A program made the position numbers and the translations under genes. The notes beneath the pieces are model-generated. The model made no database searches and was not told where the DNA came from. It saw nothing but the letters and a program-made list of their open reading frames with translations. A stretch of DNA of 55,913 nucleotides from a virus (taxonomy: Duplodnaviria; Heunggongvirae; Uroviricota; Caudoviricetes), in the IMG/VR virus record IMGVR_UViG_2778261121_000001, positions 1 to 55,913 of that record. The stretch is one strand, 5' to 3'. Each line of letters begins with the position of its first letter. Position 1 is the first letter of the stretch. Of the stretch, positions 1,586 to 55,511 are shown piece after piece.

Positions 1586-3619
1586 TTACTTAACTTGGTG
1601 GCCTGGTTTAGCACCAGCATCCGGGCTTAACAGGAAGATATCTTTCCCACCGGGGCCAGCAGCCATCACCATACCTTCGGAGATACCGAAGCGCATTTTA
1701 CGCGGAGCCAGGTTAGCCACCATAATGGTGTGACGACCAATCAGTGCCTGTGGGTCTGGATAAGCAGAACGGATGCCTGAGAAGACATTGCGTTTTTCAC
1801 CACCTAGATCCAGCGTCAGACGCAGCAGTTTGTCAGAACCTTCAACAAACTCTGCGTTTTCAATCAGCGCCACGCGCAGGTCAACTTTGGCGAAGTCGTC
1901 AAAGGTGATAGTTTCCTGAATCGGGTCGTCAGCCAGTGGGCCAGTTACCGGTGCGGCTGTGGCTTTCACTTCTTCTTTGGATGCTTCCACCAGTGCTTCA
2001 ACCTGCTTCATATCGATGCGGTTATACAGTGCCTTGAACGGATTCACTTTATGGCCCAGCAACGGTTGCTGGATGCCATCCCAGGTCAGTTCTGTATTCA
2101 GGAATGCTTCTGCACGTTCAGTCAGTTTCGGCAGTACCGGCTTCAGGTACGTCATCAGCACGCGGAACAGGTTAATGCCCATAGAGCAAATCGCCTGCAG
2201 ATCGGCATCGCGTCCTTCCTGCTTCGCCACCACCCACGGAGCCTGTTCATCGACATAGCGGTTAGCCAGGTCAGCCAATGCCATGATTTCACGGATAGCT
2301 TTACCAAATTCACGGCTTTCCCATGCTTCGCCAATCACTTCAGCGGCATCAGTAAAGGTTTTGTACAGTTGCGGGTCAGCCAGTTCGCTTGCCAGCACGC
2401 CGTCAAAACGCTTGTTGATAAAGCCTGCATTACGGGAGGCCAGGTTAACCACTTTGTTCACGATATCGGCATTCACGCGCTGAACGAAATCCTCCAGGTT
2501 GAGATCGATATCATCAATGCGCGAAGAGAGTTTCGCAGTGTAGTAGTAACGCAGGCTGTCAGCGTCAAAATGATTCAGCCAGGTGCTGGCTTTAATAAAG
2601 GTGCCGCGAGACTTGGACATCTTCGCGCCGTTCACCGTCACATAGCCGTGAACAAACAGGTTGGTCGGCTTGCGGAAGTTGCTGCCTTCCAGCATGGCAG
2701 GCCAGAACAGGCTGTGGAAGTAAACAATATCTTTACCGATGAAGTGGTACAGCTCGGCGGTGGAGTCTTTCTTCCAGTATTCATCGAAGCTGGTGGTATC
2801 GCCGCGCTTGTCGCACAGATTCTTGAAGGAACCCATGTAGCCAATCGGCGCGTCCAGCCAGACGTAGAAATATTTGCCCGGCGCGTTCGGAATTTCAAAA
2901 CCGAAGTAAGGCGCATCGCGGGAGATATCCCACTGTTGCAGGCCGGATTCAAACCACTCCTGCATTTTATTTGCCACCTGCTCCTGCAACGCACCGCTGC
3001 GGGTCCATGCCTGCAACATTTCGCTGAAAGAAGGCAGATCAAAGAAGAAGTGTTCGGAATCACGCATTACCGGGGTAGCGCCAGAAACCACCGATTTCGG
3101 CTCGATCAATTCAGTCGGGCTATATGTTGCGCCGCAGACTTCACAGTTATCGCCGTATTGATCTGGCGCTTTACATTTCGGGCAGGTGCCTTTTACAAAA
3201 CGATCCGGCAGGAACATGCCTTTTTCCGGGTCGTACAACTGAGAGATAGTGCGGTTTTTAATAAAACCGTTCTCTTTCAGGCGAGTATAGATAAGCTCAG
3301 ACAACTGACGGTTCTCTTCGCTGTGCGTCGAGTGATAGTTGTCATAGCTGATGTTAAAGCCTGCGAAATCAGTCTGGTGTTCCTGACTCATTTCGCCAAT
3401 CATCTGCTCCGGTGTGATACCAAGCTGCTGTGCTTTCAGCATGATCGGCGTACCGTGGGCATCGTCGGCACAGATGAAATTAACCTCGTGGCCGCGCATT
3501 CGCTGGTAACGAACCCAGACATCAGCCTGGATGTGCTCCAGCATATGGCCGAGGTGGATTGAGCCGTTAGCGTACGGCAGCGCGCACGTCACCAGAATTT
3601 TCTTCGCGACTTGGGTCAT
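1586..3619 (-). CDS. metG: methionine--tRNA ligase
   Basis: Translation from [29 protein letters not shown] to the C-terminus matches E. coli MetG almost residue for residue; start set at the MTQ methionine rather than the longer track ORF. Confidence 0.95.
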
Positions 3620-3776: not shown

Positions 3777-4877
3777 ATGAGCGAGTCCAAATCGCCGGAT
3801 GCCCTGAGAGCAATGGTAGCCGGTACGCTGGCTAATTTTCAGCACCCAACCCTGAAACACAACCTGACTACGCTTAAAGCGTTACACCATGTTGCGTTGA
3901 TGGATGACACACTGCATGTCGAACTAATCATGCCTTTCGTGTGGAATAAGCCTTTTGAAGACCTGAAAGAGCAATGTAGTGGTGATCTGCTCCGTATCAC
4001 TGGCGCAAAGGCTATTGACTGGAAGCTGTCGTACAACATTGCCACGCTTAAGCGCGTCAAAAACCAACCAGGCATTAATGGCGTTAAGAATATTATCGCC
4101 GTAAGCTCAGGCAAGGGCGGTGTAGGCAAATCGTCCACAGCAGTAAACTTGGCACTGGCGTTGGCTGCTGAAGGTGCGAAAGTTGGTATTTTGGATGCCG
4201 ATATCTACGGGCCATCAATTCCAACCATGCTGGGCGCGGAAAACCAACGTCCAACCTCACCAGACGGTACTCACATGGCACCTATTATGTCTCATGGCCT
4301 GGCAACCAATTCTATTGGTTATCTGGTCACCGACGACAATGCGATGGTGTGGCGTGGACCGATGGCTAGCAAGGCGCTGATGCAGATGTTGCAGGAAACA
4401 CTGTGGCCTGATCTGGACTATCTCGTTCTCGATATGCCGCCGGGCACTGGTGATATTCAATTGACGCTGGCGCAGAACATTCCTGTAACGGGTGCTGTGG
4501 TGGTAACTACGCCGCAAGATATCGCGCTGATCGATGCGAAGAAAGGCATTGTGATGTTCGAAAAAGTCGAAGTGCCGGTACTGGGTATCGTCGAAAACAT
4601 GAGTGTGCATATTTGCAGTAACTGCGGTCATCACGAGCCAATTTTCGGCACCGGTGGCGCAGAGAAACTGGCCGAGAAATACAACACGCAGTTGTTAGGC
4701 CAAATGCCACTTCATATCTCACTTCGTGAAGATCTGGATAACGGAACACCAACCGTTATTAGTCGTCCAGATAGCGAATTTACGGCTATTTATCGTGACC
4801 TCGCAGATCGCGTTGCTGCCCAAATGTATTGGCAAGGTGAAGTAATACCTGGCGAAATCGCATTCCGCGCAGTGTGA
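3777..4877 (+). CDS. apbC: iron-sulfur cluster carrier ATPase ApbC/Mrp
   Basis: Walker A SSGKGGVGKSS plus CxxC near the C-terminus; strong similarity to E. coli Mrp; divergent from metG as in enterobacterial chromosomes. Confidence 0.93.
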   Translation: MSESKSPDALRAMVAGTLANFQHPTLKHNLTTLKALHHVALMDDTLHVELIMPFVWNKPFEDLKEQCSGDLLRITGAKAIDWKLSYNIATLKRVKNQPGINGVKNIIAVSSGKGGVGKSSTAVNLALALAAEGAKVGILDADIYGPSIPTMLGAENQRPTSPDGTHMAPIMSHGLATNSIGYLVTDDNAMVWRGPMASKALMQMLQETLWPDLDYLVLDMPPGTGDIQLTLAQNIPVTGAVVVTTPQDIALIDAKKGIVMFEKVEVPVLGIVENMSVHICSNCGHHEPIFGTGGAEKLAEKYNTQLLGQMPLHISLREDLDNGTPTVISRPDSEFTAIYRDLADRVAAQMYWQGEVIPGEIAFRAV

Positions 4878-4914: not shown

Positions 4915-5304
4915 CTACATCACGGGACAATCATCAAACTCGCCACTTCTTGCGTCGTTGATAATGTGAGTGATCACACCAAACACGGCATTGCTGCCCG
5001 TGCATCCATCGTCATCCTTTGGCAATGCTTCCTTCTTACCGGTTCTTAAATCCTCCAGATGCTGACGTGGGTACTTCCGGTATCTTTTTACGCGATATTC
5101 CCCATCCAGAGCGCATACAAGCAGAGAACCATCAACCGGGGTAAGTGAGGAATCGACCACCAGCAATGCACCCTGTAATATTCCCTCACGATGATGACTA
5201 TCAGCTGCCCTCATGAAGTAGGTCGCTGAAGGATGTCTAATTATCTGCTGATCAAGAGAAATACGGCTCTCAGCATAATCCGCCGCAGGAGAAGGGAAGC
5301 CCAT
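4915..5304 (-). CDS. UmuD'-like protein (pre-processed UmuD homolog, HumD-like)
   Basis: Begins GFPSPAADY, the position of the UmuD autocleavage product, and aligns with the UmuD C-terminal domain; LexA box immediately upstream. Confidence 0.7.
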   Translation of the reverse strand: MGFPSPAADYAESRISLDQQIIRHPSATYFMRAADSHHREGILQGALLVVDSSLTPVDGSLLVCALDGEYRVKRYRKYPRQHLEDLRTGKKEALPKDDDGCTGSNAVFGVITHIINDARSGEFDDCPVM

Positions 5305-5320
5305 AATACTCGCCTCTTAG

Positions 5321-5340
5321 TACTGTATACACATACAGTG
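5321..5340. promoter_or_regulatory. LexA (SOS) box
   Basis: TACTGTATACACATACAGTG fits CTGT-N8-ACAG, 17 nt upstream of the 4915..5304 start codon. Confidence 0.65.
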
Positions 5341-12365: not shown

Positions 12366-12426
12366 GTGTTTTTCTCTTATCGTTTAGTTACTACATTCTT
12401 ACACAAATTAAGTAAGCATTTACCTA

Positions 12427-14112
12427 TCATTTAACGCGTTTGAAAACGTATACGCTGACTGTGATCCCGGTATCTTCAAACTCGTTGGTAAACGACTTCC
12501 CTTTGGCATAAACGTAATTATCCATCGTCATCCAGCTCAGGATTGGCGCAGTGCCCGGCAATACTGCTACAAGACGACCGCCGAGTTTCAGATGCCCCAG
12601 CGCAGCCAGCGTGTGCTCTCTATGACGACCAAGCGAGTACGGCGGGTTCATAACGATTTTGTCGAACTGATAACCTGCGTTGTCCTCAGACCACTTTATG
12701 AAGTCGCAGCAAATCGTGTTCGTATACCCTTTTCCACGCAGGATATCAGCGAAGAGAGGTGCGATTTCTATGCAGGTAACATCTTCCAGATCGGCGTTAA
12801 TATAGGCCAGAAGATCCCCACGTCCGGCTTGAGGCTCCAACAGCTTCTCACCAGGCTTCAATTCAGTGGCTCTTGCAACGTACTCAGCAATCAAGCGTGG
12901 GGTAGGGTAGAACTGGTGTGATTTTGTATCCGGTATTAAACCGGTAGCCACAATCGTATTTAGCGTATGGCCGATGTCATACGGGAACTGCCAGTGCTTT
13001 TTCTCCTGCACGCCGCCAATGAAGCTCAGTGTGCGCTCAAGCTCTTCCACCTGCGACTTCTGGAGAGCTGAATCAGAGAAGTACCATACGCCTTTGTCTT
13101 TGCTCAATCGCCCGTCACGAAGCGCAGTGCGAACCGGCACGGAGATCGTCTTCTGGATTAACCCGAACTGCTTTGGTGCCCGTGTTTTTGGCGCAGTTCG
13201 GCATGGCGCGGGAATTGCAGCAGGCATACTGTAAGCCAGCACCTCATTCAACTTCCAGGCCACGTCAGGATGTATTTCAAAGTGAACGTTGCCGTTCTTG
13301 AACATCTTCACGCGCATCAGATTTCCATCGACGTTCATCCAGTCACCGGTCTGGCAGTCGTTTGCCCGATACGCAGCTGATAGCACCTCAGCAGTGCGGT
13401 TGATGGTAATAAATTCTTTGTGCGCGAAGAAATGAAGCAAGACACGCAGATCGTCGATGTAGTCCTCTTTGCGATAGTTCACGCTAACGCTGTCCCGCCA
13501 GAAATCAGAAATGCAGTCAGCGATTATCAGACGCTCGCTGAAACCGTTTGTCTTATTTGTCTTGTGCGCAGGACTCAGCGCCTTAAACAAGCCATACACG
13601 CGCTCAGAGAGATATTTGTGCCTGTCATTCAGCAAATTAAGCATCGTGGGTATGACCGTTTCTGCTTTGAACTCCGGTACACCAACGAACTCTTTAACCT
13701 TCATCTGGTAGCCGGTTCTGTCAGTTTTGATGACTTCCTGTTTGCCCTCTATAAACTGCTCGCGCCACTCATCTCGACGGGAAGCTGGCATGATCAGCAA
13801 AACGTTAGTCATGTCCGTGACCTTCCTCCAGTACTCGGCCCAAATATTCTGTTTCACCCATTCCAGATCGACTTTATCCAACCAACCTCGATTTAAACGC
13901 GAGCGATCTTCATCTGGTCGATGGTTTAGTCTCAGCAGGCGATTAATCATGTTGTGGCGTTCGTCGCCATAAACGAAGTCGTGAACCTGATACATGAAGG
14001 CGATCTCTTTCTCGCACTCGGCCACAATTTCGTGGATGACGTTCATTTCCTGCCGATAGTCGATAGCAGTGTTTGAGTTGGCATCGTCGATGATGGAAAG
14101 GGCTGTATTCAT
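12427..14112 (-). CDS. DNA amino-methyltransferase (C-terminal NPPY domain) fused to a ~380-aa N-terminal domain of unknown function
   Basis: C-terminal FYPTP, LEPQAGRGDL (motif I) and NPPY (motif IV); N-terminal domain has no recognisable motif. Confidence 0.7.
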   Translation of the reverse strand: MNTALSIIDDANSNTAIDYRQEMNVIHEIVAECEKEIAFMYQVHDFVYGDERHNMINRLLRLNHRPDEDRSRLNRGWLDKVDLEWVKQNIWAEYWRKVTDMTNVLLIMPASRRDEWREQFIEGKQEVIKTDRTGYQMKVKEFVGVPEFKAETVIPTMLNLLNDRHKYLSERVYGLFKALSPAHKTNKTNGFSERLIIADCISDFWRDSVSVNYRKEDYIDDLRVLLHFFAHKEFITINRTAEVLSAAYRANDCQTGDWMNVDGNLMRVKMFKNGNVHFEIHPDVAWKLNEVLAYSMPAAIPAPCRTAPKTRAPKQFGLIQKTISVPVRTALRDGRLSKDKGVWYFSDSALQKSQVEELERTLSFIGGVQEKKHWQFPYDIGHTLNTIVATGLIPDTKSHQFYPTPRLIAEYVARATELKPGEKLLEPQAGRGDLLAYINADLEDVTCIEIAPLFADILRGKGYTNTICCDFIKWSEDNAGYQFDKIVMNPPYSLGRHREHTLAALGHLKLGGRLVAVLPGTAPILSWMTMDNYVYAKGKSFTNEFEDTGITVSVYVFKRVK

Positions 14113-36417: not shown

Positions 36418-36900
36418 CCAACCACTGTAGTTAGTAGTAAGGCTCACTATCCACTGTAGTGAGCCTTACTTATATCTGTAATTCGCTATCCACTATAGTG
36501 AGTATCGTTATCTGTTGATAACCACTGTAGGCAGTAGAATGCAAATACTGAATCAAATGTTAGTGATCACTAACACTGATGAAACAAGGGCTGCGAGGTT
36601 AGTGGTCACTGGGTATCTTGGAAAATTTACTGTCTATAGTGGTTGTTGTCGCCCTCATCTTTGAGCGTATCCACTGTGGCGAGTGGATATCCACTGAAAA
36701 CAGCAAAGGCTTACTCACCATAGTGGATACCCGCTGGACATCTCACTCCAATACTCACCATAGTGGTTGTTTGATGCGAATGAAAGGCTGTCTACTCGCT
36801 ACAGTGGTTAGCAGATATGTAGGAAGAGAGGACTGCAGACCACAGTGGATAATGAGCTGATACGAATGCGGTGAGCTGGCTACTCACCGCAGTGGTTGGT
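36418..36900. repeat. downstream iteron array (about 11 copies, both orientations)
   Basis: CCACTGTAG/CCACTATAG cores and their reverse complements between the repA stop and the next gene. Confidence 0.7.
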
Positions 36901-46851: not shown

Positions 46852-49211
46852 ACTCCAAAATCAACAATATCAGCGTTGTCACTCATCGCTTCGTCATAGG
46901 TCCTGCGTTTGCCGTCAGAGCACAGCAGCATGGCCTTTTTGTGGACTTCTACTGTGCTTCCGTCTTCAAGTGACAGTGTCACCCAGCCTGCTTGTGCTCG
47001 TTCTACAAAATCGCTGCCGATCGCTTTCATCTTTTCCATGTTCTTCTTACCGATGGCGGAACGCAGAGCATCAGCCTCCGCCATAGAGAATCCAGCGAGC
47101 ACACGAGAGCTTTTCATAATTTGCTCTTGATAGAGCAAAACGCCGTTAGTTTCTTTGGTTGTTTCCTCAAGACGAGGATGAATTGAATGTGGAGCCATAA
47201 AACCTTTGGCGACAGAAACATAGTCATCCAACATGCCTGACTGAATTGGCCCCGGCCGGAAGAGCGCAGTTGTAGCAACAACCGTTTTAAAGCTCATTGG
47301 CTCAATTCCACCACCTAAATCTTTAAGCAGCTTGCGCATTGGGCCTGATTCAAGCTGGAAAACACCTTGAGTGTACCCAGCAGCAAAACCATCCAGCACC
47401 TTGCGATCCTCAAGAGAAATGGCATCAAGATTGATATCTTCACCTGTGTTCTCTTTTATGTAGCGTTTTGCACTATCGAGCAAATCGAGAGTTGCCAGGC
47501 CAAGCACGTCTAGCTTAATTAGGCCCATAGCCTCGCAGTAACGCTTGTCAAATGCGATACAACGCGCGTCACCACGGCGTTCAACCGGTGTACGTTCTGT
47601 CAGAGGAACACCTGCTACGATCATCCCTGCCGCATGTCTACCAAAGCCACGCATAAGGCTTTGTAACTTGCAGGCTGCATTGAATGCATCAGGATATTTT
47701 GTTGCGTATTTGTCGAGACTTGCCAGTTGTTCGCGCAGCTCTTCCAATGGAAGGCTATCATCCTCGACGTTCTTCAGTTCTTTTGATACCGCCATATCTG
47801 CGGACTCCACACCATAAATACGAGCGGTGTCACGTAGTGCAGAGGCTGCGCCCAGGTAGGTGAAGTTCGGAATGCCTGCAACGTAATCTTCGCCGTAGCG
47901 TTCATTCAGATACTCGATCACCTCATGGCGACGTGCCTGGCTGAAGTCCAAGTCCGCATCTGGCAAGTCGAGACGCTCAGGGTTGATGAAACGCTCAAAC
48001 AGAAGACCGTGACGGATTGGGTCGACGTTGGTTATGCCTATGCACCACGCCACCAGAGAACCGGCAGAGGAACCACGACCAGGCCCGACAGGAATGCCAG
48101 TTTCACGGCTGTGATTCATCAGATCGCGTACCATCAGGAAGTAACCACAAAATCCCAGGCGAGTCAGCGTGTCCATTTCGTACTTAAGCCGTTCAACATA
48201 AATCCTGTTCTCAGAAGCCGGTGGTGTGTAGCCAAACTCTTTTGTGGTAAGACGTTTACGCAGCCCAGCAACGGCCAGTTTCATCAGCGTTGCAGGCTCG
48301 TCGTCTGCCATCTTTGGCAGTGCTGGTGGCAATTCATGCCAGCGCCATGTGCAGGCATCGATAATGGTATCCTGCGTTGTTGAGGCCATTGCAGCTGTTA
48401 CCGGCACATCCATGCGAACGGAGAAGGCTTTAAGAGCCTCAAGGAGATGGCGGCGACCATTGACGGCGTTATCTCGCTGGTGGGGGATACGCAGACGATG
48501 CGGCTGGTCGATTTTGATGTTGTTCGTAACCATGTGCGCAATGTCTTTAATGTCTGCATCGTCGATCGATTCGTAATAAGCGGGATAGAACGCTACTGGC
48601 TCTATTTTCAGTGCTCTGGCGACTTTCATCGCCCGGACGTTAATCTGGTCGTAGAATGGTGTAGGGTGCGGATAAACCACACTATAGAAGTTGTCTTTTC
48701 CACCTGCTGTAATCAGTGAGCTTATGATTTTTGCAAAATCGTTGCGTTGGAACACGCTACCGATGTCGGAAGTGAGCAGGATGATGTTGCCTTTGGCATA
48801 TGTAGAAACCAACTGTTCGAGCGAGAGACGCGGTACAAAGTAGAACTGTTCTCGTGTGTTGGCCACCGTCATTAGTTCGCAGATGTCGCGATATCCTTGC
48901 TCATTTTTAATTAGAGCGGTAAACGAGTAGTTACGTCCTCGCTCTAATGATTCCATACATCCCTTAGACTCTTTAGCAAGTTTAGCCCGGTACTCGTATG
49001 TGGGATCATCAACGATATTTAGTTTCACACCACAAATAACCGCCATGTCGTCACCAGCGGCACGTTGTAGTGGAATAACACTCGCAATATTCATGCTATC
49101 TGCTGAAATTACAGCGGTGTAGCCAGCTTCTCTGGCAATCTTCACCGCGTTTTCCGCTTTTAAAGCCGACTCCCCAAGTGAGAAGTCAGTTCGAACCATC
49201 AGTGCCTTCAT
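46848..49211 (-). CDS. DNA polymerase III alpha (DnaE) N-terminal fragment (PHP and polymerase core)
   Basis: 787 aa aligning with the DnaE N-terminal two thirds; conserved start context. Confidence 0.85.
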   Translation of the reverse strand: MKALMVRTDFSLGESALKAENAVKIAREAGYTAVISADSMNIASVIPLQRAAGDDMAVICGVKLNIVDDPTYEYRAKLAKESKGCMESLERGRNYSFTALIKNEQGYRDICELMTVANTREQFYFVPRLSLEQLVSTYAKGNIILLTSDIGSVFQRNDFAKIISSLITAGGKDNFYSVVYPHPTPFYDQINVRAMKVARALKIEPVAFYPAYYESIDDADIKDIAHMVTNNIKIDQPHRLRIPHQRDNAVNGRRHLLEALKAFSVRMDVPVTAAMASTTQDTIIDACTWRWHELPPALPKMADDEPATLMKLAVAGLRKRLTTKEFGYTPPASENRIYVERLKYEMDTLTRLGFCGYFLMVRDLMNHSRETGIPVGPGRGSSAGSLVAWCIGITNVDPIRHGLLFERFINPERLDLPDADLDFSQARRHEVIEYLNERYGEDYVAGIPNFTYLGAASALRDTARIYGVESADMAVSKELKNVEDDSLPLEELREQLASLDKYATKYPDAFNAACKLQSLMRGFGRHAAGMIVAGVPLTERTPVERRGDARCIAFDKRYCEAMGLIKLDVLGLATLDLLDSAKRYIKENTGEDINLDAISLEDRKVLDGFAAGYTQGVFQLESGPMRKLLKDLGGGIEPMSFKTVVATTALFRPGPIQSGMLDDYVSVAKGFMAPHSIHPRLEETTKETNGVLLYQEQIMKSSRVLAGFSMAEADALRSAIGKKNMEKMKAIGSDFVERAQAGWVTLSLEDGSTVEVHKKAMLLCSDGKRRTYDEAMSDNADIVDFGV

Positions 49212-52929: not shown

Positions 52930-53142
52930 TTAACAGATTCTGACGGCTAAAGACCCGGAGCCGGTATTGAGAAGCGTGAAGCGTTTGTTGTTAAGTTCGA
53001 ATATAAAGCCAGTTGTGTCATTCACACCAACCTGAATCTGCTCATTCGGTAGATCGGTGAGGATGTCAGCTACACACTCATCAGCTAATTTCTGTACGTG
53101 TCCGATCTCAAGAGCGATTAGGCTGGAAATAGTGGTTTTCAT
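52930..53142 (-). CDS. hypothetical small protein (70 aa), divergent from the HTH regulator
   Basis: ORF in track; position suggests a Cro/Coi-like role. Confidence 0.4.
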   Translation of the reverse strand: MKTTISSLIALEIGHVQKLADECVADILTDLPNEQIQVGVNDTTGFIFELNNKRFTLLNTGSGSLAVRIC

Positions 53143-53393
53143 TCAATCAATCCATTCTAACTTATACTATGGTAAGGAATACTACTAAAATTTGTATCAA
53201 TACTGAATACATCTATATCAGATGCAAGTTAATTTTCTTACCTATTTGGGGCTAGTTTTTCTCCATGCATGGACCTTTGCTCGGTCTTACAAGTGCCTGC
53301 CGAAAAAAATGATAATAGCTTTACAACCCTAACCTTTGATGTAATATCGGTAAGCACTTACCAGAGAGAATTAAACGCGCAAAGGTTGTAACA

Positions 53394-53780
53394 ATGTCTG
53401 ACAACAAGATTGAATTTATAGAAAGTCGCTATGCTGCTTTTATCGCAGGGCTGATTGAATCCTCACCTATGAGTCAGGCACAAATAGCCCGACTTATTGG
53501 TTATAAAAATGCCAACAACCTTTCTTTAATTAAAAGTGGCAAAATTCCTTTGCCTATCGATAAGGTTCGTCCGTTGGCGCTGGCGCTGGGTATTGAGCCA
53601 AGTCGTCTTATGATGATGGTGCTGGAAGAACGCCAACCTGAACTCGCAGCATTTTTATACAAAGAAGGCACCGCTCCTCTTAACGAGGACGAAAAACAGG
53701 TTCTTGCTGCATATAACGAGCGATTCGGTAAAGAGAAAGGCGCATCACAAAAGGTTGTTGAGGCCATAAAGTCTCTATGA
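53394..53780 (+). CDS. helix-turn-helix (XRE-family) transcriptional regulator, candidate repressor
   Basis: HTH MSQAQIARLIGYKNANNLSLIKSG; GGTAAGCACTTACC palindrome at 53349-53362 upstream. Confidence 0.65.
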   Translation: MSDNKIEFIESRYAAFIAGLIESSPMSQAQIARLIGYKNANNLSLIKSGKIPLPIDKVRPLALALGIEPSRLMMMVLEERQPELAAFLYKEGTAPLNEDEKQVLAAYNERFGKEKGASQKVVEAIKSL

Positions 53781-54878
53781 AAAATTTACACGAATAAGCT
53801 CTGTTGATAGACGATCTCCCTTGAATTTGTGGTCAATTTCGTCTAAATCCGGTTGCTCTACGATTGATGCGATGTACGTCGAGAAACTTTCTAAGGCGTC
53901 TCGCATCTCGTCCATATAATCGTGTCGGTCGTAGACCCGATCTATCCCCTCAAGACTGTGGTTCATGATTTTGCGTGATACCTCCTGGCTTATGCCTAAT
54001 GCTGGGAAGTAACTACGCGCAGTACGGCGCAAATCTCGGGGTGTAAATGGCTCAAGCTCCATCAGTTCTGGTCGTTCCAGAATACGACGTAATGCCTGGG
54101 CTATTGCCACTTTAGACATAGGAAGGTCTTTCCCGATTTTTTTATTCGAAGGCACGAGCCACTGGCTGCCTTTACCGTATTCGAACAACTCTTCAATACA
54201 TGTGCGCATTAATGTGCTTAAAGGCAGCGAATGCTCACGGGCAGATTTGTTCCTCTTGCCTTGATTCCAAACCCCACGCTTAAGATTGAACTCACTTTTT
54301 TTAGCCCGCAGTACTTCGTCAGGTCGTCTTGCGGATACAAGACACAGCCTGGCCGCCCATTTTGTACCAGCGCACACATTGAAGTAGTCCCATATATTCC
54401 AGAACACCCATACCTCTGCGTCGGTCAGCTTCCGCTCGCGAGGTGTTGGCTTTGCGCCACCGGCAACTTTGTTTAGTGACATATCATTTAACGGTGACAC
54501 ATCGATCATCCCCTGGAAGGCACACCAGCTAAGGAACTGCTTCATCAGAGAGAAAACGCGGCGGCCCATAACAATTTTGCCATCCAGTATTAGAGGGTTG
54601 ACCAGTTGGTTCACCATGAACCTATTAATGTCACTTACTTTTACATCGGCAATGTGCGGCAAAACATGTATCAAAATACAATGAACAGCGATCTCTGGCC
54701 GACGTCTTGTTATCAGCAAAGATAAGCGAGTGAATAACATGAATGCGTCCGAGAATCTCATGTCATTGCTGACCTGGGAGATCATAACGGCCTGCATTTG
54801 AGATGCTCTTTCGAGATACTCAATCGCCTCTTTTGAGGTGTTCTCCGCAGCGCGTGCTCTGTCAAAGCTATTTTTCAT
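53775..54878 (-). CDS. tyrosine site-specific recombinase (integrase/Cre-like)
   Basis: C-terminal catalytic signature R...HSLR...Y (PRDLRRT, NHSLEG, YDRHDY). Confidence 0.8.
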   Translation of the reverse strand: MKNSFDRARAAENTSKEAIEYLERASQMQAVMISQVSNDMRFSDAFMLFTRLSLLITRRRPEIAVHCILIHVLPHIADVKVSDINRFMVNQLVNPLILDGKIVMGRRVFSLMKQFLSWCAFQGMIDVSPLNDMSLNKVAGGAKPTPRERKLTDAEVWVFWNIWDYFNVCAGTKWAARLCLVSARRPDEVLRAKKSEFNLKRGVWNQGKRNKSAREHSLPLSTLMRTCIEELFEYGKGSQWLVPSNKKIGKDLPMSKVAIAQALRRILERPELMELEPFTPRDLRRTARSYFPALGISQEVSRKIMNHSLEGIDRVYDRHDYMDEMRDALESFSTYIASIVEQPDLDEIDHKFKGDRLSTELIRVNFS

Positions 54879-54976
54879 ATGACAATCACCGAGTTACGCC
54901 GATGCACTGTATAAGTAAACAGTATATTAGGCATAGATTCTTATAGGATCAAGAGTCAAAGTAACTCATTTTTAGT

Positions 54977-55009
54977 AATGATTCCATACATAGTAGGTAT
55001 GGAATCATT
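54977..55009. other. candidate recombinase target site: 13-bp perfect inverted repeats around a 7-bp spacer
   Basis: AATGATTCCATAC-ATAGTAG-GTATGGAATCATT, 99 bp upstream of the recombinase start. Confidence 0.5.
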
Positions 55010-55061
55010 TAGACGTTGTTTTTTGAATTTTAAGGGAAACAGGAGTGAGTGTTTGGTGGGA

Positions 55062-55087
55062 ATAAAAAACGGCTCCTGTGAGCCGTT
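55062..55087 (-). terminator. intrinsic terminator downstream of the glutaredoxin gene
   Basis: AACGGCTC-ACAGG-AGCCGTT followed by UUUUUAUU on the minus strand. Confidence 0.45.
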
Positions 55088-55091
55088 AAAA

Positions 55092-55337
55092 TCAGAGGGT
55101 GCTGACATGTGCGGCCAGCTCTGTGTATCCGCCAATCGGTTGACCATCGATCAGCACTTGGGGGATAGTCTCTACCGGTTTACCAACAATTTCACTTAGT
55201 TTTTCCTTGTCGATACCGGCAGTGGTGATGTCGATGTACTCATAATCACCGTAGCCATGTCCCTTTAGTTGCTTCGCCAGCTCGACCGCACGTTTGCAGT
55301 ATGAGCAGTTATCTCGTCCGTAGATAGTGATCGTCAT
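55092..55337 (-). CDS. glutaredoxin (Grx1/NrdC-like)
   Basis: CSYC active site; C-terminus GKPVETIPQVLIDGQPIGGYTELAAHV closely matches E. coli GrxA; start set at MTITIYG with GAGGT Shine-Dalgarno. Confidence 0.75.
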   Translation of the reverse strand: MTITIYGRDNCSYCKRAVELAKQLKGHGYGDYEYIDITTAGIDKEKLSEIVGKPVETIPQVLIDGQPIGGYTELAAHVSTL

Positions 55338-55511
55338 TGTTACCTCGTAGAATTGATATGTAACTTTACTTACAAAGAAGATAGGTATGTGCATACCTAT
55401 CTTTGCAGTCTGCATTATAAAGCTATTAAAGCCTCGATCAATCTATTAATTAAGGCATTGTTTGGTTAACATTAGCCTAATATTTTATAGTTAGTAGAGT
55501 GAAATACATAC

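Follow-up and report, generated by a model that had tools for sequence, protein, structure and literature searches.

Recombinase gene and palindromic site

A close counterpart of the locus described here is Cre/loxP of the plasmid prophage P1, in which a tyrosine recombinase lies beside a simple site made of two perfect 13-bp inverted arms around an asymmetric 8-bp spacer; the site is present once per genome and has no use in chromosomal integration. Multimers are likewise brought back to monomers at one site per replicon by XerCD (dif, cer, and psi), TnpI (IRS of Tn4430), and ResD (rfsF of the F plasmid). Lambda- and P4-type integrases add an arm-binding domain, arm-type sites, and a chromosomal attB, and the crossover region of lambda is 7 bp long. 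In integrons, a LexA box lies at the promoter of the integrase gene, the site is directly upstream of that gene, and variable accessory genes start from the site. Here, we analyzed a stretch of viral DNA of 55,913 nucleotides (nt) (Caudoviricetes; IMG/VR record IMGVR_UViG_2778261121_000001, positions 1 to 55,913; the whole stretch is called the window below), in which a 33-bp palindrome lies next to a tyrosine recombinase gene. The window belongs, by sequence comparison, to a phage-plasmid of the SSU5/pHCM2/pMT1 type, and the arrangement shares with Cre/loxP the simple site, its single copy per genome, and the expected use in dimer resolution, possibly also in circularization.

The core site is a perfect 13-7-13 inverted repeat at positions 54977-55009, in which the arms AATGATTCCATAC (54977-54989) and GTATGGAATCATT (54997-55009) flank the asymmetric spacer ATAGTAG (54990-54996). 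It is located 98 nt from the ATG (54878) of the recombinase gene, between the putative promoter of this gene and an intrinsic-terminator-like hairpin (55068-55087, minus strand) that ends the upstream glutaredoxin gene to the right of the repeat. Such a repeat is not a matter of chance, since a perfect inverted repeat with arms of at least 13 nt and a spacer of at most 12 nt appeared in none of 60 Markov simulations of the window. Folded as single-stranded DNA, the region forms a hairpin with a z value of -7.7.

The site was then compared among 81 related loci. Both arms were identical in 79 of them, with recombinases that are 56 to 100% identical; at locus L076, whose recombinase is 56% identical, outer positions are altered in both arms. 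The spacer occurs in 10 variants, among which are two pairs whose members are exact flips of each other. Invariant arms around a variable spacer are the pattern expected for recombinase-binding arms that flank a crossover region. Exact reverse complementation of the spacer was found between near-identical sites (ATAGTAG/CTACTAT and TTAATAG/CTATTAA), namely, between L001 and L039, between L007/L069 and the Kluyvera type (L004-L006), and between L085 and L091; in the first two cases, these are close relatives whose flanks are identical. These comparisons suggest that the core has flipped several times relative to the recombinase gene, either by template switching at the hairpin or by recombination in the wrong orientation, both of which could generate such flips. 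Either way, the direction in which the core points between its flanks is not constrained, which is tolerable only if the site has no obligatory asymmetric flanking accessory sites. This differs from cer and psi, which have a conserved accessory block, whereas the flanks of the present site are replaceable. It also differs from the Xer systems in general, in which the host XerC/XerD pair acts on an 11-6(8)-11 site with unlike arms, whereas a single element-encoded enzyme and identical 13-bp arms are present here. A protelomerase-type site was considered as well and rejected, because the spacers are nonpalindromic and the records are circular with the site in their interior. The arm motif can also be read as ATG ATT CCA TAC (MIPY), and an open reading frame (ORF) of 73 amino acids (aa) without a family match (54978-55199, plus strand) begins in the left arm; this ORF is probably spurious.

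The adjacent gene (53775-54878, minus strand) codes for a tyrosine recombinase of 367 aa, which matches the Pfam family Phage_integrase (6.8e-10), weakly Phage_int_M, and the integrase family phrog_1 (1e-46). R185, R284, and Y316 do not vary in a set of 39 homologues, at least 90% of which also have K211 and H307, such that the Arg/Lys/Arg/His/Tyr residues of the lambda and P4 integrases are represented. An AlphaFold2 (AF2) model of the protein (pLDDT 86) was searched with Foldseek. The top match was lambda Int on its core site (1z1b; E value of 2e-7 and TM score of 0.6), followed by Tn1549 Int (2e-6), XerH (2e-5), XerA, and IntI. The E values of lambda Int, Tn1549 Int, and the Xer proteins were about 1e-7 to 1e-4, whereas Cre chains reached only 0.05 to 0.09. 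Comparison with the PDB by sequence yielded no match at E values up to 1. The nearest outgroups by sequence, at no more than 34% identity, are P4-type integrases carrying PF13356 (Arm-DNA-bind_3). In the recombinase itself, neither PF13356 nor PF09003, both arm-binding families, was matched, and residues 1 to 70 were modeled as helices. Judging from the domain matches and the model, the protein is an integrase-lineage enzyme reduced to its core-binding and catalytic domains, a composition that suits a simple site. Lambda Int and the P4 integrases are therefore its closest kin in fold and sequence, but the arm-binding domain, the arm-type sites, and the chromosomal attB are missing here and the core is perfectly symmetric.

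An earlier note on this DNA had described the perfect 13-7-13 repeat and assigned the gene upstream of which it lies to a Cre-like tyrosine recombinase. Its coordinates for the repeat were correct, and the tyrosine recombinase was confirmed by the Phage_integrase match and the intact catalytic residues. "Cre-like" does not hold as a family name, given the far better matches to lambda Int, Tn1549 Int, and Xer proteins and the 7-bp spacer, and is best kept as an analogy: the enzyme is not a relative of Cre in sequence or fold, and the locus differs from loxP further in its LexA-box promoter and in distant half-sites (see below). No other site-specific recombinase is annotated in the complete relative pEA11_2, for which the PLSDB table is incomplete, and a crude motif search of six-frame translations did not reveal a serine-recombinase motif. 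The literature searched, whose coverage is incomplete, treats the phage-plasmid "integrase" as a persistent gene without explanation (PMC7969092) and gave no description of the site or of an activity of the enzyme.

Distribution, co-variation, and mosaic junction of the site

The region matches about 190 Escherichia plasmids of ~110 kb at 97 to 98% identity and, at 74% identity, several hundred plasmids of Klebsiella, Enterobacter, Citrobacter, Salmonella, and Cronobacter; the phages Cyrano, PhiR41_1, and pJN2-26 match it too. These comparisons indicated that the window is part of a phage-plasmid of ~110 kb, a type whose E. coli members belong to a group named pSLy3 in reviews (PMC7969092, PMC11652158). 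Among 5426 complete E. coli genomes, the recombinase gene and the site were present in 252, at 255 places, every one of them plasmid-borne, and no chromosomal copy of either was found. Each of these records gave exactly two places for the 33-bp site, which are the two strands of a single palindrome. In PLSDB, the site was detected in 833 plasmids at 1660 strand-places, or about once per plasmid, with Klebsiella (350), Escherichia (230), Enterobacter (92), Yersinia (63), and Salmonella (49) as the main carriers; these include pHCM2/pMT1-sized plasmids of Salmonella and Yersinia pestis and many Klebsiella and Enterobacter isolates. Resistance genes have been reported on phage-plasmids of this type (PMC9600943).

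Hosts other than E. coli were covered through plasmid collections only. Matches in species-representative genomes fell on contigs of 12 to 108 kb (Yersinia, Kluyvera, and Buttiauxella), none of which is chromosome-sized; for close homologues on contigs of 308 to 897 kb, the look-up gave plasmid-sized places only and is uninformative about integration. The absence of chromosomal copies from the E. coli genomes, together with the lack of an arm-binding domain, makes chromosomal integration very unlikely. Dimer resolution, as suggested in the earlier note, or exchange between plasmids is thus the role that fits best, and a chromosomal att site, which would have spoken for integration, was looked for in E. 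coli and not found. A second copy of the full site, for which the note had proposed a search, was found neither in the window nor in the complete 109-kb relative, the 252 E. coli genomes, or the 833 PLSDB plasmids; only lone half-sites came to light.

More distant homologues, at 44 to 50% identity, have a site of the form (A/G)TGACTCCAGAC-7-GTCTGGAGTCA at 20 to 130 nt upstream of the recombinase gene. In this form, positions 5 and 10 are altered symmetrically in both arms, matching the recombinase clade, and a 7-nt spacer with the loose consensus TTAWTAG is found in all members of both arm-type clades. Phage-plasmids of Xenorhabdus and Providencia keep the order cargo, site, recombinase, helix-turn-helix (HTH) gene, 70-aa ORF, CobT, CobS, and DnaE. 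The other-arm site also accompanies a lone recombinase gene on a 106-kb plasmid of Erwinia and on megaplasmids of Pantoea (507 kb) and Rahnella (722 kb), all of which have neither an HTH neighbor nor phage genes, and a 34-kb plasmid of Photorhabdus has intermediate arms. Since the palindrome co-varies and travels with the recombinase, even where the HTH gene is absent, it is tied to the recombinase and not to the HTH protein. On these comparisons, the gene and its palindrome show the character of a general plasmid module.

For the 77 loci that extend 1.5 kb or more to either side, the flanks of the site were sorted into families, which yielded 11 left families versus 24 right families. The E. 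coli-type left family is paired with 8 unrelated right families, and two of the right families occur with two left families each. The locus L057, for example, shares ~83% identity with L049, L060, and L061 over 400 nt on the recombinase side and 100% over 1.5 kb on the other side. Where different right families were compared, the shared prefix past the arm measured 0 to 3 nt in 267 of 276 comparisons, as by chance, and divergence sets in at the first base outside the arm. A divergence that starts sharply at the arm edge is the outcome predicted if two sites that share the same arms cross over within the spacer. The DNA to the right of position 55009, from the core site up to the glutaredoxin/tRNA region, is a hot spot of accessory genes (L001, L002, L003, L083, L086, and L089). 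Its cargo includes toxin-antitoxin pairs, a YafO toxin, Phd/ParE accompanied by a colicin-type DNase plus the immunity gene for it, an Ail/Lom-type outer-membrane protein, PhoH, and a GadW-like regulator. One cargo ORF is expressed 723-fold above background in Cyrano lysogens (PMC9928086).

Lone half-sites, LexA box, and neighboring regulatory genes

A lone half-site was found in the window 6 kb away from the core. It consists of AATGATTCCATAC (48946-48958) followed by AT (48946-48960, plus strand) and lies inside dnaE, antisense to the gene and facing the core site. The stretch ATGATTCCATACATC (48947-48961) is unchanged in most loci that reach this region, while the codons around it differ; ACC replaces ATC in two of the listed loci. 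In our reading of the frame, this copy encodes C-M-E-S-L in a variable stretch of DnaE. Complete relatives carry two further copies on the cargo side, outside the window, at 1.2 to 5.8 kb past the site and ~1 kb apart from each other; in pEA11_2 (L079), the lone copies of (A)ATGATTCCATAC followed by ATC are at 13784, 22459, and 23471. All three face the palindrome, and the ATC follows in nearly every locus, with ACC in a few of the E. coli type. The 12-mer is identical from E. coli to Nissabacter, the recombinase of which is 60% identical, bar single changes in two loci, while its neighbors vary. Besides dnaE, the half-sites are located upstream of a tRNA cluster and at the start codon of a small membrane-protein gene; translation of a hydrophobic, conserved ORF of ~50 aa (CYRAN_38; L002, 9215-9367) truly begins at one of the outside copies. 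By our arithmetic, ~0.003 copies of (A)ATGATTCCATAC plus ATC are expected by chance in 109 kb. Phage-plasmids with GACTCCAGAC-type arms lack lone copies of both types.

The protein that binds the arms most likely binds the lone copies as well. As weak partner sites they were rejected: they have no second arm, and their would-be spacers agree with that of the core at only 3 of 7 bases, so the lone copies are unlikely to be recombination partners. Relics of decayed cassette insertions were rejected too, as the copies are invariant amid variable flanks and do not delimit the variable cargo. They are unlikely to be operators of the HTH protein, for the control region of the HTH gene contains no copy and has a different palindrome. 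When the motif is read as a conserved mini-ORF, ATG ATT CCA TAC ATC (MIPYI), a single copy opens a genuine, conserved ORF; the other MIPYI copies stop after 6 to 7 codons or vary, and other clades differ in the first base. A degenerate half-site with one mismatch, TGATTCCAAAC (54262-54272, plus strand), lies in the recombinase gene, where the opposite strand encodes V-W-N-Q, and relatives in Klebsiella and at L076 have the exact GATTCCATACAT at the equivalent place; this half-site may be a by-product of coding.

The recombinase gene has a putative sigma-70 promoter on the minus strand (54924-54952), with a -35 hexamer TTGATC (54952-54947), a spacer of 17 nt, and a -10 hexamer TAATAT (54929-54924). 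It was read from the sequence and scores below the threshold of the consensus scanner (8 of 12 matches); both hexamers are kept in 68 of the 81 loci. One base downstream of the putative -10 lies the LexA-box-like CTGTATAAGTAAACAG (54907-54922), and 72 of the 81 loci have, at the same place, an exact CTGT-N8-ACAG, which is the LexA-box consensus. The box within the promoter implies that the recombinase is probably SOS induced. Ciprofloxacin induces Cyrano 39-fold (PMC9928086). A second consensus LexA box, CTGTATACACATACAG, was noticed at 5323-5338, 19 nt upstream of a 129-aa ORF of the Peptidase_S24 type (UmuD/LexA-like; 4915-5304, minus strand).

The recombinase gene converges on that of an XRE-type HTH regulator of 128 aa (53394-53780, plus strand), with an overlap of 6 nt (53775-53780). 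The regulator matches HTH_19 weakly and phrog_8, a family of transcriptional regulators, at 6.6e-12. Its position is conserved across all phage-plasmid relatives, with orthologues of 35 to 64% identity kept in place in the phage-plasmids of Klebsiella, Citrobacter, Nissabacter, Xenorhabdus, and Providencia, and in Cyrano lysogens, expression of the orthologue CYRAN_45 exceeds the background 10-fold (PMC9928086). The HTH gene promoter (53320-53347, plus strand; TTTACA, 16 nt, TAATAT) is directly followed by the palindrome GGTAAGCACTTACC (53349-53362), which covers the expected transcription start and is conserved in relatives from Klebsiella, Citrobacter, and Yersinia. With up to 2 mismatches, GGTAAGCACTTACC occurs 7 times in the window versus 0.92 expected, a number reached in none of 100 shuffles. 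When up to 4 mismatches are allowed, the window has 11 copies of the 20-bp form ATAGGTAAG-NN-CTTACCTAT versus 0.13 expected (at 12408, 17386, 19602, 24437, 29147, 33831, 37630, 39584, 44370, 53346, and 55381), and the whole relative has 18. Six of the seven located matches to the core pattern are outside long ORFs or just upstream of an annotated gene start, one falls on the promoter of the HTH gene itself, and several copies are 15 to 135 nt upstream of minus-strand genes, such as those for nrdA and glutaredoxin. The perfect palindrome AAGATAGGTATG-TG-CATACCTATCTT (55378-55403), just past a promoter-like site upstream of the glutaredoxin gene, is a member of this operator-like motif. The 20-bp palindromes are thus probably candidate operators of the HTH protein, which is itself probably the lysogeny repressor. 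An SOS-induced transcript of the converging recombinase gene would then run antisense to the repressor mRNA, and it could even extend into the array of the 70-aa ORF, cobT, cobS, and dnaE. The LexA box and the convergent repressor gene may together provide a route of SOS induction.

The small ORF in this array encodes an acidic product of 70 aa (52930-53142, minus strand; phrog_2627, function unknown, 5.8e-41). It heads the leftward cobT/cobS/dnaE genes, is divergent from the HTH gene, and has syntenic counterparts of 70 to 76 aa in distant relatives. There is no match to it in Pfam or NCBIfam and no detectable relation to Coi, and its AF2 model (pLDDT 54) was too poor for a fold search. The earlier note had placed a small divergent ORF and an HTH regulator beside the recombinase gene and had likened them to the c1/coi switch of P1. 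Both genes are indeed present, but the ORF diverges from the HTH gene and not from the recombinase gene. As to the switch, the expression in the lysogen and the operator-like motif are in favor of a repressor, whereas homology to C1 or Coi is lacking. The likeness to P1 would be that of one repressor with many operators dispersed over a plasmid prophage; it ends with the 128-aa XRE-type protein, which is not a C1 homologue, with candidate operators that are palindromic where those of C1 are asymmetric 17-mers, and with a 70-aa ORF that is unlike Coi and heads the cobT/cobS/dnaE array.

Two observations stand apart from these genes. Other long perfect inverted repeats are present in the window at 14111, 20705, 36436, and 43216 (16-12-16, 15-3-15, 14-7-14, and 11-4-11, respectively), those at 36436 and 43216 sharing the start AGTAAGGC. 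Exact 40-mers shared with the annotated relative pEA11_2 suggest that window positions ~1586-3619 (minus strand) match metG, for methionine-tRNA ligase, and that positions 3777-4877 (plus strand) match apbC; both are host-type housekeeping genes on a phage-plasmid.

Proposed function of the module

Of the functional readings of the locus, resolution or exchange has better support than any other, chromosomal integration included, and we regard it as fairly probable. The 33-bp palindrome would be the crossover site of the adjacent recombinase, and the two would form a self-contained module of an extrachromosomal phage-plasmid. We infer that two recombinase monomers bind the two identical 13-bp arms and that two sites synapse; strand exchange would take place across the 7-bp spacer, whose asymmetry would direct the conversion of a head-to-tail dimer into monomers. 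The recombinase could also assist in circularizing infecting DNA. Dimers are expected to form, as the element has its own RecA gene and its relative Cyrano is maintained at ~5.5 copies (PMC9928086). Between co-resident related phage-plasmids, the same reaction would fuse them at the site, and homologous recombination elsewhere would free chimeras. Such fusion would explain why variable cargo starts at the site.

Several observations weigh against this assignment. The three conserved lone half-sites are not predicted by a plain lox-like model, and they suggest a regulatory role of the motif, either besides recombination or in its place. The E. coli and PLSDB records include no two-site record, dimer, or cointegrate joined at the site. 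In the catalytic set, the His-I position is occupied by Arg281. SOS control is unusual in a housekeeping resolution system, and many right flanks share a weak common motif, a T-run followed by AAATCTG, such that accessory sequences may exist. The sharp boundary at a constrained palindrome could arise without crossover, by turnover of the neighboring DNA. The distal edge of the variable block is blurred and lies in or near the glutaredoxin gene, which fits fusion at the site with homologous recombination elsewhere and does not fit cassettes bounded by two sites.

It is unlikely that the motif is mainly regulatory, with the palindrome and the half-sites as operators of the recombinase or of another phage-plasmid protein, little or no strand exchange, and the recombinase promoter and cargo-side promoters as targets. 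Three lone exact copies throughout the family, one in dnaE and two on the cargo side, all facing the palindrome, are what such a role would lead one to expect; the palindrome itself lies ~25 nt upstream of the -35 of the recombinase gene, and two lone sites fall between genes or where a gene starts. Yet the HTH control region lacks the motif, a better operator candidate exists for the HTH protein, plasmids that are not phages carry the gene and the palindrome alone, and phage-plasmids with the other arms have the palindrome without lone sites. The mosaic junction at the arm edge is, moreover, predicted by crossover, and core sites of tyrosine recombinases typically show such a 13-7-13 layout in which the spacer varies. 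The same junction, with diverse cargo from the arm edge and its 24 families of right flanks, together with the conserved LexA box that integron integrases also have at the promoter, can be read as an SOS-controlled platform for cargo exchange, loosely integron-like, in which the swapping of accessory genes and not dimer resolution is the main selected role. We give this a low probability, because no second site or attC-like repeat bounds the cargo, its distal boundary is blurred, its orientation is inconsistent, and the megaplasmid modules are without an obvious cassette array. Integrons have attC-like sites, cassettes, and a common orientation, all of which are lacking here, whereas the present site is a symmetric double-stranded palindrome.

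A classical integrase with its attP, integrating into the chromosome or another replicon, is highly improbable. The database label "integrase," the fold and nearest relatives of lambda and P4 type, and a 7-bp crossover region as in lambda speak for it, but they are set against the absence of chromosomal copies from the 5426 E. coli genomes, the lack of an arm-binding domain, freely replaceable flanks that leave no place for arm-type sites, and a perfectly symmetric core unlike attP. The same low standing goes to a mere RNA or DNA hairpin, such as a terminator or stability element, or a chance repeat. The stable single-strand fold and the location between a terminator and a promoter would suit a hairpin. 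An intrinsic terminator at the palindrome was, however, rejected, as the stem is AT rich with no adjoining T-run and a proper terminator is 60 nt away, and the Rfam search gave no match. Compensatory changes would be expected in a hairpin, whereas the arms are invariant at 56 to 100% recombinase identity and otherwise change with the recombinase clade.

These considerations leave resolution or exchange as the favored use of the site, and the half-sites and the LexA box invite a broader scheme. The recombinase, the palindrome, and the three half-sites might constitute one SOS system that goes beyond dimer resolution and combines cargo exchange, control of early genes, and an antisense route to induction past the repressor; we consider this doubtful. 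If it is true, bound half-sites would couple the exchange of accessory blocks between co-resident phage-plasmids to early-gene control, and the antisense route would give SOS induction to a phage-plasmid whose repressor has no cleavable domain.

Two natural specificities are at hand, with the arms GATTCCATAC and GACTCCAGAC, both around 7-bp spacers, and the two pairs are candidate recombinase/site tools for genome engineering that are unrelated to Cre. Phage-plasmids of the SSU5/pHCM2/pMT1 type are present in ~5% of complete E. coli genomes, and the defined 33-bp site offers an experimental handle on how such plasmids are maintained as monomers and how their accessory regions are shuffled.

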